DNA from: Deferribacterota bacterium
GTDB lineage: Bacteria; Chrysiogenota; Deferribacteres; Deferribacterales; UBA228
DNA length: 22,255 nt
Direction of reading: 5' to 3'
NCBI GenBank assembly: GCA_034189185.1
Contig: JAXHVM010000014.1
Coordinates: forward strand, 1 to 22,255
Positions 4,182 through 13,709 of the stretch are shown piece by piece. The notes beneath the pieces were generated by a model. The model was not told where the DNA came from. It did no database searches and was given only the letters and a program-made list of their open reading frames with translations. Both the position numbers and the translations under genes were made by a program. Position 1 is the first letter of the stretch. Each line of letters opens with the position of its first letter.

Positions 4182-5288
4182 TCACACACCATAAGCCTTA
4201 TAACAACTTCTACAAACATTTGGTAGGGGATATTTTTTTAGCATATTTTCATATTTTTTGCCGTATTCACCTAAGGCAGCCATAGTCAACTCCATAGGTA
4301 AAATCCTTTCTGAAGCAATAATACGATTATTAAAAGAATCTCTAAATTCTTTATAAGCCTTGCTTTCCCATATATCAGAAAGCTCATCACTATCAATATT
4401 GCCAAAGGATAGTTTTTTTATCTCCTCATATTTATCACAAAATATCCGTTTAATATTTCCTTTTACTGGCAAATTTAGATAAACACATGGGCTAACATCG
4501 CCATTGACAGTAATAAAGATAGTATCAATGGGGCTTGCTTCACACATAGGTTGCTCACTCATTTTTATAGGGAATATTTTTAACGTTATACCTAGTTTTC
4601 TTGAGACAACCTTTGCTTTGTCTAAATAACCCTGATAACTAGTATTTACTTTACTACAGTCAAATAATTTTAATTCATCTTGAATAGACGTTGGAGTATA
4701 ATCAAGGTTTGTTGCAACTAATTCTTTAATATTAAACTTCTTCATTAAAGTTAATACTTCTGGTAATTCAGAAATATTATCTTTTGTCATCATATAAGAG
4801 AATTTTATTTGGGGATATTTTAAATTATTTTTCTTTTTGGCTGCTATAAGGCAGCTAATGTTATTTAACATATCACTTAATTTTCCTCCTCTAACCAAGG
4901 AATGAGTATGATCACTTGAGCCTCCCAATGAAAAAGCTAATATATCAATATTACTTTTCAAAAGCTCAACTATCATATTGTTATCCAATAACAGACCATT
5001 AGTGGTTAAACTTACAATACTGCCTGCCCTTTTTGCAATATTAACCATTTCAATTATATCTTTATGTAGCAAGGGCTCCCCCCACCCCTGCAGATGCACA
5101 TGCTTTGTCACCGAAAAATAATCTGACAATTTCTTATAAAGAGCAAGTGGCATATCCTCTTCAACCCATTGAACAGCTTGATCACTCCTTGGGCATATCC
5201 TACATTTTAACTGACACCTTGTAGTAGGCTCAACCTGCAAACAAAAAAACTTATATTTTCTTTTCCTCTTTAAATATCTGTTTAACAC
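4182..5288 (-). CDS. Radical SAM enzyme with a C-terminal Cys-rich auxiliary-cluster domain (SPASM/twitch-like).
   Basis: Motifs present: CQLKCRIC (Cx3Cx2C), GWGEPLL (SAM glycine-rich motif), SLTTNG. The C-terminal cysteines are CEASP..SPCVY, FCDKY and CRSCYKAYGV. The gene is convergent with the DUF1847 gene, and their stop codons are only 7 bp apart. Confidence 0.8.
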   Translation of the reverse strand: MLNRYLKRKRKYKFFCLQVEPTTRCQLKCRICPRSDQAVQWVEEDMPLALYKKLSDYFSVTKHVHLQGWGEPLLHKDIIEMVNIAKRAGSIVSLTTNGLLLDNNMIVELLKSNIDILAFSLGGSSDHTHSLVRGGKLSDMLNNISCLIAAKKKNNLKYPQIKFSYMMTKDNISELPEVLTLMKKFNIKELVATNLDYTPTSIQDELKLFDCSKVNTSYQGYLDKAKVVSRKLGITLKIFPIKMSEQPMCEASPIDTIFITVNGDVSPCVYLNLPVKGNIKRIFCDKYEEIKKLSFGNIDSDELSDIWESKAYKEFRDSFNNRIIASERILPMELTMAALGEYGKKYENMLKKYPLPNVCRSCYKAYGV

Positions 5289-7529: not shown

Positions 7530-7648
7530 ACAGCTATTCCTTTCTTCTATTTTAAAATATTAAGAAAAAATTTCCACCCAATCATGAATAACAATTTAAC
7601 ATAGTAGGTTAACAATTTTTATGCACCAAACTGATGCAATTAACTTGC

Positions 7649-7822
7649 TCAAGTAAAACTACTATTTACACAACTACTACCTGTCGATGCGCTAAAAGCA
7701 GACATTAATTTTTTTACATTTTTACTTTTACATTTTGGACACTCAATTAAATCATCTTTTTTCATAACAATTTTACTAAACTTTTCACCACATTCATTAC
7801 ATTTAAATTCATAGATTGGCAT
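7649..7822 (-). CDS. FmdB-family zinc-ribbon protein, 57 aa. It is not in the ORF track because it is below the size cutoff.
   Basis: The minus-strand ATG at 7822..7820 is preceded by GGAGGG. The translation is MPIYEFKCNECGEKFSKIVMKKDDLIECPKCKSKNVKKLMSAFSASTGSSCVNSSFT, with TGA at 7651..7649. It shows the classic MPIYE(F/Y)xCxxCG...CPxC signature. Confidence 0.7.
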   Translation of the reverse strand: MPIYEFKCNECGEKFSKIVMKKDDLIECPKCKSKNVKKLMSAFSASTGSSCVNSSFT

Positions 7823-9612: not shown

Positions 9613-10407
9613 CTATTTTAGCTCCAAACACACAGCTGCATTCTCAAACACTTGAAATGTTAAGGTCTCAAGGAAATATAAGCTTATATGTTTATCATTA
9701 TGACTATCATAACCAATTGATAAATCCTGCCCAAAATTTAAGATAAAATCACCACCCCTCTCTGATAAGAAAAAAACATCCTTTATATGAGGGGATACTA
9801 CAATCTTACCATCAATAGTATTCTTAACAGATTTGAGAAGTGGATAACCTTTACCATGGCTAACTATAAATTTCCATACCTCTGGTGATACTACTAATGA
9901 ATAGGGACCACCAATCCCTAGATAAACCAACTTTCCTTTTGCATCTACAATTGATTTTAATAAACTTTCTGCATCTAACGATAATGTAATAGTATCACTA
10001 ACATTCTTCTTTAAACCATCGACGTTTGCTTTCTTCATCCCGTAATATACTATCTCATCTTCTAGTTTAGATATCACACGAGCTGCCTCAATAAGTGGTG
10101 CCAAATCAGGATTTTTACACCCTCTATCTATACTATCTATCTCTTGCCTATCTAATTTGAAATATGTTTTTAGCTCTATTAATGGCTGAACATCAAAAAT
10201 TGAACATACTGTATTTTCATTGCTTTTTTCATCTAACTTTTTTAGTCTCCCCGTATTTATGACCCCAAAATCTAAACCCTTAGGCTCTTTAACATCAACT
10301 AATCTCCTTGCTGTTAGATAATTTGAAAAAGCATCCTTTGCTTGACTGAATAATTCCTTCCATGCTTTATCGCTAATTGGTGCTAATTCTTGTCTTAATA
10401 TGTTCAT
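9613..10407 (-). CDS. Family 1 encapsulin nanocompartment shell protein (HK97 fold).
   Basis: The 264-aa protein aligns by eye along its full length to T. maritima-type encapsulin (..PLIELKTYF.LD..E..ERGGDF.L..GQDLSIGY..ETLTFQV..). It has a GAGAGGT RBS. Confidence 0.9.
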   Translation of the reverse strand: MNILRQELAPISDKAWKELFSQAKDAFSNYLTARRLVDVKEPKGLDFGVINTGRLKKLDEKSNENTVCSIFDVQPLIELKTYFKLDRQEIDSIDRGCKNPDLAPLIEAARVISKLEDEIVYYGMKKANVDGLKKNVSDTITLSLDAESLLKSIVDAKGKLVYLGIGGPYSLVVSPEVWKFIVSHGKGYPLLKSVKNTIDGKIVVSPHIKDVFFLSERGGDFILNFGQDLSIGYDSHNDKHISLYFLETLTFQVFENAAVCLELK

Positions 10408-10429
10408 TTATTACCTCTCTCTCTTATTT

Positions 10430-10783
10430 TTATTTTAATTTTCCAATATTTAGACTACTATTTGGTTTATAGCTACTTTCTTCACTTGATGCCTCATTTC
10501 CTTCTATTGAGACTATATCTTCCTTTGTAAATAGATAAGTTTTCAAAGCTTCATCCCAAAAGCCCATATTTCTTCTAAGCCATTCAATTGCCATTACTGC
10601 ATGTTCAATCTCCTCATCCCTGTGATGTTCTAACATCCTTCTTAAACCTTCATCTTTGCAGACATCAACCCTTTGTTGGTACCAATTTACCGCTTCGACC
10701 TCTTCCTTTAGCGTATTTAATGCCCTAACAATATTTCTTGTTTCTTCGGATAACTCTTCAGTTGGTTCATGATAATCTGACAT
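10430..10783 (-). CDS. Encapsulated ferritin-like cargo protein (EncFtn) with a C-terminal encapsulin targeting peptide.
   Basis: It has the ferritin-like ExxH motifs (RRMLEHHRDEEIEHAVMAIEWLRR) and a flexible acidic/Ser-rich tail ending in SLNIGKLK, which matches the encapsulin cargo-loading peptide consensus. It lies 22 bp upstream of the shell gene on the same strand. Confidence 0.85.
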   Translation of the reverse strand: MSDYHEPTEELSEETRNIVRALNTLKEEVEAVNWYQQRVDVCKDEGLRRMLEHHRDEEIEHAVMAIEWLRRNMGFWDEALKTYLFTKEDIVSIEGNEASSEESSYKPNSSLNIGKLK

Positions 10784-10853
10784 ATATTCACCTCAATATA
10801 TTTATTTTTGTTATAATTATATATTAAAATATAAATTCTACAATAGTAAAATA

Positions 10854-10876
10854 GAAAGGCCTTTCAAAGGCCTTTC
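10854..10876 (-). terminator. Stem-loop (GAAAGGCC ... GGCCTTTC) downstream of the peroxiredoxin copy A stop. It may be a bidirectional terminator.
   Basis: An 8-11 bp perfect inverted repeat spans 10854..10876, with an A/T run on either side. It lies between the prx-A stop at 10908 and the EncFtn promoter region. Confidence 0.5.
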
Positions 10877-10907
10877 TATAATTATTTTATAAATTGTTAA
10901 AATAACG

Positions 10908-11630
10908 CTAATAAAGTGTTGAATAAGTAGGATTCCACACCTTCCATACATTACCTTCTAAATCTTCACTTGGGGTTAGGGTTATTTTGCCTGGCAACCA
11001 ACCAGCAGGCAATACCTCTCCTGTCTCTTTATTGTATTGTAATGCTTTAACCTGTCTAATTGTCTCATCTATATTTCTACCAACAGGTGGTGTTAAAACC
11101 TCCATAGCCCTTACTATACCATCGGGATCTATTATAAACCTACCTCTAATATCAACCTTACCTTCTTCATCATAAACATTATACAATCTCCCAATGCTAC
11201 CACCTGGATCAGAAAGCATAGGAAATTTTACTCCCCCTTCAATCATTTTCTTTAATTCTTTTTCTTGCCATTCTTGATGAGATTCAACAGAATTTACACT
11301 AACACTTAAAACCTCTACATTTAAAGATTTCAAAATATTGTATTTGGCAGCAACTGCTGTCAATTCGGTTGGTCAAACAAATGTAAAATCACCTGGATAG
11401 AAACACAATAGCACCCATTTGCCCTTATAATCAGAAAGGGAAACCCTTTTAAATTCACCATCGTGAAAGGCATCTGCAGTAAAATCTGGAGCAGGCTTAT
11501 CAACTTTAACAATATTCACATTATCTGAGCCAACACCGCTATTTTGCGCAAAAAGCTTGCCATCTACAACAAAAAGTCCCACTAATAAAATAGCTAAAAA
11601 TAGGCAATATTTACCTAATAGCCTACACAT
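10908..11630 (-). CDS. Peroxiredoxin copy A (AhpC/TSA family) with an N-terminal signal or anchor segment and an in-frame TGA at the peroxidatic Cys position. It is a candidate selenocysteine peroxiredoxin. The alternative is a nonsense-disrupted pseudogene.
   Basis: Track ORFs 11373..11630 and 10908..11363 are one frame separated only by TGA at 11375..11373. The translation reads ..[14 protein letters not shown]-[TGA][11 protein letters not shown]... The paralogue reads ..FYPRDFGIVCPTELTALAAKY... The frame is intact through to the shared C-terminus NPTYSTLY. It has its own AGGAGGTGA RBS and promoter. Confidence 0.55.
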
Positions 11631-11656
11631 ATATCACCTCCTATGCTTTTATTAAA

Positions 11657-11684
11657 ATTCTAACATAGATAAAATAATTGTCAA
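11657..11684 (-). promoter_or_regulatory. Candidate promoter for prx copy A (TTGACA-16-TAGAAT on the minus strand).
   Basis: The minus-strand TTGACA lies at 11684..11679 and TAGAAT at 11662..11657, about 20 nt upstream of the RBS and ATG at 11630. Confidence 0.4.
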
Positions 11685-11837
11685 CATAAGTTAATAATTA
11701 TTTTAAAAATAATTATAAACAAAAACTAAATAAAGATAATCTTCTTCAATATAGAATAGATAACCAACTGTACGTGCATAACACTTGATATTTATGAACT
11801 TATGATATAATATACAACCTGTTTTATTGGAAAGCTT

Positions 11838-11888
11838 ACGAAATTTAATGTAAATGCAATTGTAAAAAGCAGGGATGTCCAATCAAAT
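11838..11888 (+). pseudogene. Orphan 5' fragment of the thioesterase-like gene at the duplication junction. This is the first 51 nt of the gene, with ATG changed to ACG.
   Basis: The fragment ACGAAATTTAATGTAAATGCAATTGTAAAAAGCAGGGATGTCCAATCAAAT matches 12981..13031 except for the start codon. The duplicated promoter at about 11775..11810 is retained upstream of it. Confidence 0.6.
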
Positions 11889-11892
11889 TAAA

Positions 11893-11955: not shown

Positions 11956-11984
11956 TCAAACACAAATTCTACAATATTAAAGTA

Positions 11985-12006
11985 GAAAGGCCTTGCAAAG
12001 ACCTTT
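11985..12006 (-). terminator. Degenerate copy of the terminator hairpin, downstream of prx copy B.
   Basis: The sequence GAAAGGCCttgcaaaGACCTTT forms a stem with one mismatch. Its position is the same as the hairpin in unit A. Confidence 0.4.
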
Positions 12007-12028
12007 AAATTAATAATTTAATATAATA

Positions 12029-12778
12029 TTAGTAAAGCGTTGAATAAGTTGGATTCCATTCCTTCCATACATTACCTTCTAATTCATCACTTGGGGTTAG
12101 GGTTGTTTTACCAGGTACCCAACCATCTGGCAGAACTTCTCCTGTCTCCTCATTATGTTGTAAAGCTTTTATCCGTCTAATAGTCTCATTTATATATCTA
12201 CCGGCTTGCGGTGTTAAAACATCCATTGCTCTTACTATACCATCGGGGTCTATTATAAAACTAGCTTTCAAATCAACTTTGCCTATAGATTTGCCCATAA
12301 CAACCAAACCTTCTTCATCATAAACATTATACAATCTCCCAATGCTACCATCGGGATCAGAAAGCATAGGAAATTTTACTCCCCCTTCAATCATTTTCTT
12401 TAATTCTTTTTCTTGCCATTCTTGATGGGATTCAACAGAATTTACACTAACACTTAAAACCTCTACATTTAAAGATTTCAAAATATTGTATTTGGCAGCA
12501 AGTGCTGTCAATTCTGTTGGGCAGACTATCCCAAAATCACGTGGATAGAAATGTAAAAGTACCCATTTGCCCCTATAATCAGATAATGAGACCTTTTTAA
12601 ATTCACCATCGTGAAAGGCATCTGCAGTAAAATCAGGAGCAGGCTTATCAACTTTAACAATATTCACATTATCTGAGCCAACACCGCTATTTTGCGCAAA
12701 AAGCTTGCCATCTACAACAAAAAGTCCCACTAATAAAATAGCTAAAAATAGGCAATATGTGCCTATACATTTGTTCAT
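12029..12778 (-). CDS. Peroxiredoxin copy B (AhpC/TSA family), Cys-containing, with an N-terminal hydrophobic signal or anchor. It has no C-terminal resolving Cys.
   Basis: It has FYPRDFGIVCPTEL with the peroxidatic Cys present. Where typical 2-Cys Prx has the resolving EVCP Cys, the C-terminus reads EVLPDGW. Relative to copy A it carries a 27-nt in-frame insertion (LVVMGKSIG). It has an AGGAGGTGA RBS. Confidence 0.85.
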   Translation of the reverse strand: MNKCIGTYCLFLAILLVGLFVVDGKLFAQNSGVGSDNVNIVKVDKPAPDFTADAFHDGEFKKVSLSDYRGKWVLLHFYPRDFGIVCPTELTALAAKYNILKSLNVEVLSVSVNSVESHQEWQEKELKKMIEGGVKFPMLSDPDGSIGRLYNVYDEEGLVVMGKSIGKVDLKASFIIDPDGIVRAMDVLTPQAGRYINETIRRIKALQHNEETGEVLPDGWVPGKTTLTPSDELEGNVWKEWNPTYSTLY

Positions 12779-12804
12779 ATATCACCTCCTAAATCGAGGA
12801 TGGT

Positions 12805-12832
12805 ATTGTAACACAGATAAAATTATTTTCAA
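12805..12832 (-). promoter_or_regulatory. Candidate promoter for prx copy B (TTGAAA-16-TACAAT on the minus strand).
   Basis: The minus-strand TTGAAA lies at 12832..12827 and TACAAT at 12810..12805. The position is the same as the prx-A promoter. Confidence 0.4.
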
Positions 12833-12927
12833 CATAAGTTAATAATTATTTTAAAAATAATTATAAGCACACTCTACATAAAATATATTCTCATCAATAT
12901 GGAGAGCTTGTTATATGATTATATTCC

Positions 12928-12956
12928 TTGATAATTATGAACTTATGATATAATAT
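12928..12956 (+). promoter_or_regulatory. Candidate promoter for the thioesterase-like gene (TTGATA ... TATAAT).
   Basis: TTGATA at 12928..12933 and TATAAT at 12949..12954, giving a 15-nt spacer. The alternative -10, TAATAT, gives a 17-nt spacer. A duplicate of this promoter exists at about 11775..11810. Confidence 0.3.
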
Positions 12957-12980
12957 ACAACCTGTTTTATTGGAAAGCTT

Positions 12981-13709
12981 ATGAAATTTAATGTAAATGC
13001 AATTGTAAAAAGCAGGGATGTCCAATCAAATGGCTATATTAGATTTCCCCATTTAGTTAGAATATTTCAGAATTCAGCATTTAAACACTCGGATTATCTT
13101 GGCTTAACACAAGATATACTTCTGAAAAATAGACTAGCATGGGTTTTATATTCAATGTATGTTAAAGTATATAATTATCCTAAATTAAATGACAATTTAT
13201 CAATAACAACATGGGTGGATAGCAAGCAAAAAATATTAATAAAGCGAGATTATCAAGTGACAAATAATAATACACCTATTTTAGATGCAACCTCCTCTTG
13301 GGTATTGTTTAATTTAGATAAAAGGCAAGCTATGTTTATCCCTGACAATATTTACTATATCTATGAACCTGAATATGAAAATATCTTATCCAAAGAAGAA
13401 AATAAATTGCCTTTTTATAATAATATTAATTATAATTACTATTATGAATTTACAATACGTCACATGGATTTAGATTCTAATGATCATGTAAATAATATTA
13501 CATATATAGATTTTATCTATACAGCAGTTTATAGAATGCTAAAAAAACCTGTATATATAAAAACGTTAAATATTATATATAAAAAAGAGATAACTTTAGA
13601 TGTCGAGAAAGTAAACATTCAATTAAATAACGATTCAGAGCAATTTAATTTTAAAATTGTTAATGACAACAACCTCTATTCCTATGGATTTTTACAACTA
13701 TATAAATAG
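12981..13709 (+). CDS. Acyl-ACP thioesterase-like protein with a double hotdog fold.
   Basis: The 242-aa protein has a C-terminal hotdog region with LDSNDHVNNITYIDFI (D..HVNN..Y) and an N-terminal ..NGYIRF..L..FQ..A..H region that resembles FatA/B-type thioesterases. Family assignment is from memory. Confidence 0.55.
   Translation: MKFNVNAIVKSRDVQSNGYIRFPHLVRIFQNSAFKHSDYLGLTQDILLKNRLAWVLYSMYVKVYNYPKLNDNLSITTWVDSKQKILIKRDYQVTNNNTPILDATSSWVLFNLDKRQAMFIPDNIYYIYEPEYENILSKEENKLPFYNNINYNYYYEFTIRHMDLDSNDHVNNITYIDFIYTAVYRMLKKPVYIKTLNIIYKKEITLDVEKVNIQLNNDSEQFNFKIVNDNNLYSYGFLQLYK

Follow-up and report, generated by a model that had tools for sequence, protein, structure and literature searches.

Is an in-frame UGA that interrupts a peroxiredoxin gene the end of its protein, or is it read as selenocysteine (Sec) with the help of a signal in the mRNA? 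The question is raised by a 22,255-nt stretch of DNA (contig JAXHVM010000014.1, assembly GCA_034189185.1) from a metagenome-assembled genome (MAG) of a Deferribacterota bacterium, referred to here as the window, with a GC content of 31%. Two tandem peroxiredoxin genes lie on its minus strand: a downstream copy at 11630..10908, with a UGA in frame, and an upstream copy at 12778..12029. For a small hairpin just 3' of this UGA (11344..11363, minus strand), an initial annotation had suggested a possible bacterial Sec insertion sequence (SECIS). We found that the UGA occupies the catalytic position, that the frame beyond it is under purifying selection, and that the hairpin stands in the register of its gene family, with an invariant GU in the loop and a covarying stem. 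A covariance model, the family register, covariation, and a control with Cys-type genes all support the suggestion, and we conclude from these sequence comparisons that the hairpin is very probably the SECIS of a PrxU-type selenoperoxiredoxin. Elements of this type are already known for PrxU selenoperoxiredoxins; the one described here, from a Deferribacterota MAG, is weak and AT-rich.

The in-frame UGA and selection on the frame beyond it

Open reading frames (ORFs) on the two sides of the UGA, 11373..11630 and 10908..11363, share one common frame, and reading through the codon yields 85 amino acids (aa), Sec, and a further 154 aa, for a PrxU-type protein of 240 aa (10908..11630, minus strand). 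In alignment, the UGA (11375..11373, minus strand) falls opposite the peroxidatic Cys of Cys-type homologues and opposite the TGC of the upstream paralogue; it completes a TxxU motif and is the putative Sec codon. Its minus-strand context reads GAU UUU ACA UUU GUU UGA CCA ACC GAA UUG ACA GCA GUU GCU GCC AAA. With C in place of the TGA, the protein scored 324.1 bits against the NCBIfam model NF040737 (peroxi_PrxU; cut-off, 270), and the PxxxTxxU active site of that model is present as P-G-D-F-T-F-V-U. The same TxxU site is given for Sec-peroxiredoxins, whose standing as a selenoprotein family rests on experiment (PMC1088965; PMC13188914). Elsewhere in the window, TGA is the stop of 4 of the 20 long ORFs, so the genetic code is standard.

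A protein search returned 151-aa fragments that begin just past the TGA (P0003, P0004, and P0009), and the contigs L001 to L012 proved to be syntenic with the window. These relatives represent three sequence types (L001 to L008, L009 and L010, L011 and L012), making four lineages when the window is counted. The TGA is conserved in every one of the relatives, in what is the sole peroxiredoxin copy of each of their loci. Downstream of the TGA, the ratio of nonsynonymous to synonymous substitution rates (dN/dS) between the window and its three orthologues was 0.045 to 0.085, at synonymous distances (dS) of 0.3 to 1.1 from the window and up to 1.4 between relatives. The frame past the TGA is therefore kept under strong purifying selection, which argues that the ORF does not end there. 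Over the same four lineages, the hairpin 20-mer is identical and the flanking wobble sites differ: codons +5 to +10, which make up the hairpin, are invariant, whereas 11 of the 19 codons that follow and 6 of the 12 that precede them vary.

Public databases treat the codon differently. Across the 120 closest database homologues, the Sec position is occupied by Trp in 87 (within FVWPTE, as in P0002, P0006, P0008, P0086, and P0107) and by Cys in 21, and three more are the 151-aa fragments. The Trp residues arose where gene callers rendered a TGA codon as Trp, so most of the close relatives are unannotated selenoproteins.

The hairpin and its conservation in the family

Counted from the U of UGA, the hairpin spans +13 to +32. 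Its 5' arm, UUGACAGC (11363..11356), and its 3' arm, GCUGCCAA (11351..11344), enclose the apical loop A21-G22-U23-U24 (AGUU; 11355..11352), with G22 at 11354 and U23 at 11353, all on the minus strand. The stem has seven standard pairs and is split by a single A.C mismatch (+16/+29) into four unbroken pairs at the loop and three pairs beyond. The initial annotation had drawn UUGACAGC-AGUU-GCUGCCAA with one A/C mismatch at this place, and its sequence and coordinates are exact. RNAfold gave −5.6 kcal/mol for the 20-mer and −6.5 kcal/mol for the 60 nt after the UGA; the hairpin still forms in 60-nt and 95-nt contexts, and within 140 nt of context its four core pairs form with a probability of ∼0.79. 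The folding check proposed for those 60 nt thus came out mixed, in that the fold forms but is weak, at a stability below the threshold discussed further on. A promoter scan also reported a −35-like TTGACA in the 5' arm (11363..11334) and in the paralogue; we took this as a chance effect of the Leu-Thr codons.

For the family-wide comparison, GAYTTYACNTTYGTNTGACCNACNGA (DFTFV-UGA-PTE) was sought in a single genome from each species, which returned at least 120 loci from many phyla. Peroxiredoxin sequence continues past the TGA in all 120 listed loci. NGUN occupies +21 to +24 in 105 of them (GGUC in 52, AGUU in 51), and in 103 of the 120 listed Sec-peroxiredoxin genes a hairpin with AGUU or GGUC as its loop stands in this register, so that the comparison with selenoperoxiredoxin genes proposed in the initial annotation is favorable. 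At +13 to +32, the hairpin reaches −7.5 kcal/mol or better in 92 of those listed and misses it in 28, with a median of −10.3 kcal/mol in the main class.

When 104 main-class sequences were aligned without gaps (A2), a nine-pair structure showed covariation. In this alignment, 86.6% of the cells are paired and changes on both sides occur at seven of the nine pairs; the covariation score was matched by none of 500 shuffles, and every slid register scored far lower. Pair 18-27, which joins two wobble positions, is GC in 73 sequences, AU in 24, and GU in 5, and is unpaired in none. The pair that closes the loop, 21-24, occurs equally often as AU and as GC (51 sequences each). G22 and U23 are invariant in 104 of 104 sequences, and positions +16 and +29, the site of the mismatch in the window, are unpaired in 19 of 104. 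With default settings, RNAalifold returned an empty structure for all 104 sequences; it recovered the hairpin each time when given subsets of 5 to 60 sequences, when scored with RIBOSUM, or when the non-compatibility penalty was reduced. The empty result is therefore due to the default non-compatibility penalty, and the structure is present.

A minority class of the family (PTEISHIAVGY or PTELTSIAVRY after the Sec codon; L026, L030, L049, L073, L089, L125, L126, L131, and L132) has its hairpin ∼7 nt further downstream, as CAUAGCC-GUU-GGCUAUG or GAUAGCG-GUU-CGCUAUC, with compensatory changes in the stem. Its loop is a 3-nt GUU, which is once more a Val codon.

A covariance model (R1) was built from 104 independent Sec-peroxiredoxin genes, with the window and its relatives left out. 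It matched the window at 11375..11336 (minus strand) over model positions 1 to 40 with 51.2 bits (E value, 1.6e-17), and 16-29 was the sole nonstandard pair; the scan that had been recommended is thus clearly positive. On the Cys paralogue the same model scored 29.3 bits, with invariant positions broken at the A of TGA and at G22.

A control for the influence of the protein sequence comes from Cys-type genes with the same amino acids. A metagenome scan for Cys-type genes encoding FVCPTE-L-x-AVA, with wobble positions left free, gave 25 loci with 19 distinct hairpin 20-mers, which allowed 94 Sec forms to be compared with 25 Cys forms at fixed residues (ELxAVA). An AGUU or GGUC loop is present in 92 of 94 Sec forms and in 7 of 25 Cys forms (Fisher P = 9e-14), a hairpin of −7.5 kcal/mol or better in 86 of 94 and 4 of 25, respectively (Fisher P = 3e-13); because the sequences share phylogeny, these P values overstate the contrast. 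Median hairpin energies were −10.35 kcal/mol in Sec forms and −4.1 kcal/mol in Cys forms. The RNA structure is plainly maintained only where a UGA needs recoding: synonymous sites are constrained in the Sec forms and free of that constraint in the Cys forms. In three Cys loci with TGC (L151, L152, and L157), a perfect SECIS-like hairpin is still present (UUGGCGGC-AGUU-GCCGCC; −12.5 to −14.3 kcal/mol); these genes may have switched from Sec to Cys only recently.

The hairpin can also be held against published descriptions. The bacterial SECIS (bSECIS) consensus of Zhang and Gladyshev, as cited in PMC13188914, has a loop of 3 to 9 nt, an upper stem of 4 to 16 bp, a UGA-loop distance of 16 to 37 nt, a G among the first two loop positions that is usually followed by G or U, and a minimum free energy of −7.5 kcal/mol or lower. 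In the window, a 4-nt AGUU loop sits on four unbroken pairs, then the mismatch and three more pairs; G is second in the loop and is followed by U; 17 nt (+4 to +20) separate the UGA from the loop; and the hairpin lies directly 3' of an in-frame UGA opposite the Cys of homologues. As to the SelB-binding geometry raised in the initial annotation, loop size, G position, and spacing match the bSECIS model, but the bulged U that was also named is absent. A general summary of bacterial SECIS elements, a stem of 6 to 8 bp with a conserved G ∼20 nt past the UGA (PMC4605307), fits the hairpin as well.

Among individual elements, the minimal SECIS of Escherichia coli fdhF is a 17-nt stem-loop at +15 to +31 with a bulged U17, a GGUC loop, and an essential G23 and U24 (PMC8659212). 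Both it and the window hairpin are short hairpins inside the coding region right after the UGA, with an N-G-U-N tetraloop whose end bases can pair; the fdhF loop GGUC is that of the 52 listed peroxiredoxin genes noted above, and AGUU is its A-U variant. That the loop G and U lie at a distance like that in fdhF, as was claimed at the outset, agrees with the positions to within one nucleotide (G22/U23 against G23/U24). The window hairpin differs in its host protein and in having no lower stem of the kind that pairs +4 to +14 with +32 to +41 in fdhF, and its stem starts 9 nt past the UGA (13 nt when the unbroken part alone is counted), compared with 11 nt in fdhF. With the SECIS elements of PrxU genes, the window hairpin shares the NF040737 family, the TxxU site, the register of +13 to +32, and the R-GU-Y tetraloop, and the stem positions of the window hairpin are those that covary in the family. 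A Sec-containing PrxU is that of Eubacterium acidaminophilum (Sohling et al. 2001, as cited in PMC13188914). Relative to its family, the window stem is AT-richer and weaker (−5.6 kcal/mol against the median of −10.3) and carries the A.C mismatch at +16/+29, and its gene comes from a Deferribacterota MAG and has a signal peptide-like N terminus. For the SECIS of Moorella thermoacetica, structures bound to SelB WHD3-4 are on record (PDB 1WSU and 2UWM, cited in PMC4605307); the mode of recognition would presumably be shared, with winged-helix domains of SelB holding the hairpin near the mRNA entrance.

Weighing the alternatives

Several results weigh against the hairpin being a SECIS. Its energy is not exceptional taken alone (z = −1.4; 23 of 200 shuffles fold equally well), the window has 8 hairpins of the same shape with an NGUN loop where shuffles predict 10.2, with no excess, and Rfam release 15 gave zero matches at gathering score over the whole window and, at E values up to 10 around the hairpin, a chance snoRNA match only. 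It ranks within the three weakest of 106 main-class hairpins, and both its values, for the 20-mer and for the 60 nt, fail the bSECIS energy limit. Compared with fdhF, its GU (+22/+23 rather than +23/+24) is one nucleotide nearer the UGA, and it has an A.C mismatch at +16/+29 in place of a bulged U. Val is at +7 in 15 of 21 Cys forms (Leu or Ile in 6 of 21), and the stem is intact in the Cys paralogue, so sequence conservation is partly protein driven. ARAGORN found no tRNA in the 22-kb window, and selA, selB, selC, and selD were not among the window ORFs or within ±6 kb of the relatives' loci, so that we infer the Sec trait of the organism. A literature search on selenoproteins of Deferribacteres gave nothing usable. 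Since the single-sequence statistics are unremarkable, the case for the hairpin must rest on context and comparison: what stands above chance is the exact register after an in-frame UGA, together with the conservation and covariation in the family. As to the energy, −7.5 kcal/mol is a search threshold more than a biological requirement, and 28 of the 120 listed family hairpins fail it too.

The hairpin could instead be a by-product of coding, produced by self-complementary codons for Leu-Thr-Ala-Val-Ala-Ala-Lys, with the TGA a nonsense codon in a decaying duplicate. The stem does consist largely of GCN Ala codons and recurs in the Cys paralogue, the fold statistics are not significant, hairpins of this kind occur in the window at the chance rate, and Val is the commonest residue at +7 in Cys forms too. 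Yet the TGA is kept in four lineages, in three of which it lies in the only copy, at the low dN/dS values given above; when the residues are fixed, Sec forms hold wobble complementarity and an R-GU-Y loop and Cys forms do not; and pair 18-27 is unbroken in all 104 aligned sequences. A by-product of coding is thus strongly disfavored and, in our judgment, scarcely credible. The caution in the initial annotation that the stem partly reflects Ala codons holds insofar as conservation is partly protein driven, but ELxAVA Cys genes are mostly without the hairpin. We consider it similarly hard to believe that the UGA is read without Sec, by near-cognate Trp or Cys at a leaky UGA-C or under an alternative code, and that the hairpin merely slows the ribosome. 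A C does follow the UGA, which is a leaky context, and many database entries show W at the homologous codon; against this, the stop codon usage in the window indicates the standard code, the W entries are gene caller artifacts at a catalytic position, and the invariant GU loop is a SelB determinant, unlike a generic roadblock (PMC8659212). By the established peroxiredoxin mechanism, a Trp at the catalytic site would abolish peroxidase chemistry.

Recoding might also depend on another or larger signal, with the small hairpin making up no more than part of it. Right after it lies a long AU-rich hairpin (11343..11296, minus strand; about +33 to +80) that is far more stable, with a total of −18.8 kcal/mol for the 95-nt fold, and the small hairpin misses −7.5 kcal/mol. 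The AU-rich hairpin forms in the L009 fold too but is lost from the L001 and L011 folds and nearly gone from the four-lineage consensus; its loop lies outside the range of 16 to 37 nt, and only +13 to +32 is conserved and covarying family-wide. For want of conservation we rejected it as the signal; base composition probably accounts for it, and a larger signal of this sort is very unlikely. Finally, the tandem Sec/Cys pair could be an assembly artifact that joins two strain variants, in which case the comparison of paralogues would be uninformative about evolution within a genome. The contig belongs to a MAG, and the Cys form was found on one contig only in the protein collection and has no record in the gene-position index. 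However, each copy has its own promoter-like site, ribosome-binding site, and terminator-like hairpin, and the dead 5' copy of a thioesterase gene in the repeat unit (ATG to ACG) looks like the trace of a real tandem duplication. An artifact is unlikely on this evidence, and the question leaves the SECIS conclusion unaffected.

If the hairpin is the SECIS, a mechanism can be proposed. With the UGA (11375..11373) in the A site, the hairpin, 9 nt further on, would be placed at the entrance for mRNA. SelB, loaded with GTP and Sec-tRNA(Sec), would bind through its C-terminal winged-helix domains to the exposed G22-U23 on a short helix closed by A21-U24; the ternary complex would thereby be tethered, and the UGA would be decoded as Sec rather than as a stop. 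By analogy with GU recognition in known SelB complexes, G22 and U23 are the presumed contacts. The product would be a 240-aa, probably exported peroxiredoxin with Sec as its peroxidatic residue. That SelB binds, that Sec is incorporated, and that the genome has selA, selB, selC, and selD we infer from what is established for the systems of E. coli and Moorella.

Another gene of the window bears on Sec decoding in the lineage. An FmdB-type zinc-ribbon gene (7822..7622, minus strand; L001 9447..9650; L011 9292..9510; TIGR02605, 60 bits) ends in SSFT-TGA-GCA-AGT-TAA, with the TGA at 7651..7649 and the TAA at 7642..7640. Past the stop codon is a hairpin, UGCAUC(A)-GUU-(U)GGUGCA (7638..7622), at a UGA-loop spacing of 16 to 17 nt, and both the TGA and the hairpin are kept in L001, L009, and L011, with compensatory changes in the stem and a GUU or GGU loop. 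The FmdB family is a predicted selenoprotein family (UxxU) (PMC13188914), and the gene is a candidate for another selenoprotein of the window, one in which Sec would be the third-last residue. A second conserved TGA with a covarying hairpin in the same window points to Sec decoding in this lineage.

The Cys paralogue, the neighborhood, and what the locus means

The tandem Cys paralogue (12029..12778, minus strand) has TGC at 12523..12521, as seen in its translation and in alignment A1, and its hairpin at 12511..12492 has the loop ACUU, with C at 12502 in the place of G22. As the initial annotation had stated, this copy has the same stem and a loop without G: the 20-mers of the two copies differ solely at +22, where G22 is replaced by C and Val by Leu. 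The change fits a relaxed SECIS constraint, weakly. The argument from this single loop difference to coevolution of the Sec codon and the SECIS is right about the difference but has little force, since one substitution among 20 positions, with the stem kept, carries little statistical weight. Other parts of the paralogue have diverged further. Its active site reads FYPRDFGIVC, so that the Thr of PxxxTxxC is Gly, it has a 9-aa insertion (LVVMGKSIG), and it scores 269.8 bits against NF040737, just below the cut-off (270). Measured against the orthologues, its dN/dS reaches 0.09 to 0.19, compared with the 0.045 to 0.085 of the Sec gene, both below 1. The Cys copy may be neofunctionalized or decaying.

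The Cys paralogue was not found on other contigs of the protein collection. Because the relatives carry the Sec copy alone, duplication of a Sec ancestor is the simplest origin for the Cys copy. The repeat unit of ∼1.1 kb (10850..11890 and 11975..13031) comprises the peroxiredoxin gene, its promoter region, and its terminator, together with the dead 5' copy of the thioesterase gene (∼50 nt, 11838..11889), whose intact version starts at 12981. The copies are mosaic, with tracts of ∼90 and ∼170 nt that are 100% identical and divergence clustered at the active site and in the C-terminal third, a pattern that suggests gene conversion. It is possible, if doubtful, that the pair captures a Sec-to-Cys conversion in which duplication was followed by change of UGA to UGC, loss of G22, and remodeling of the active site, while gene conversion kept long tracts of the two copies alike. 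If so, the Cys copy could be a selenium-independent backup or a neofunctionalized enzyme, and the loss of G22 could have been selected, sparing SelB from titration by a hairpin without a UGA.

The Sec gene looks like a transcription unit of its own, given a promoter-like TTGACA-16-TAGAAT with TG upstream (11657..11684, minus strand; 11 of 12 matches to the consensus scanned), a Shine-Dalgarno AGGAGG read from the sequence 6 nt 5' of the ATG (11637..11642, minus strand), and an intrinsic terminator-like hairpin 3' of the gene, with a 13-bp stem followed by a T run (10851..10879, minus strand; consensus scan). AGGAGGTGATATATG precedes the Cys paralogue as well as the Sec gene. The N terminus of the Sec protein resembles a signal peptide, and the protein is probably exported. 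Directly downstream lie an encapsulated-ferritin cargo gene (TIGR04535, with a targeting peptide-like tail, SLNIGKLK) and the gene of a family 1 encapsulin shell (9613..10783, minus strand). The order in L001 to L010 is acyl-ACP thioesterase, split peroxiredoxin, encapsulated ferritin, encapsulin, and methyltransferase; L011 and L012 keep the thioesterase, split peroxiredoxin, and methyltransferase and have no encapsulin genes, and L011 has a Fur gene and a TonB-dependent receptor upstream. The neighborhood looks like one of iron and oxidative stress genes. Farther away, a radical SAM/SPASM gene is whole in the window (4182..5288, minus strand) and in L009 (10287..11423), at 368 to 378 aa, and is called in L001 to L004 as two pieces of 232 and 121 aa (L001 9708..10814).

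These findings leave the knowledge of bacterial Sec decoding unchanged; their value lies mainly in annotation and in the Sec/Cys tandem pair. Public records are wrong about this gene and its relatives in two ways, presenting some as fragments of 85 and 151 aa and others as full-length proteins with a catalytic Trp, and annotation as selenoproteins is due. That the hairpin persists in Sec forms and is lost from Cys forms while the residues stay constant illustrates how an RNA signal embedded in a coding sequence constrains synonymous sites. For the Deferribacterota lineage, a selenoperoxiredoxin that is probably exported adjoins an encapsulated-ferritin operon.

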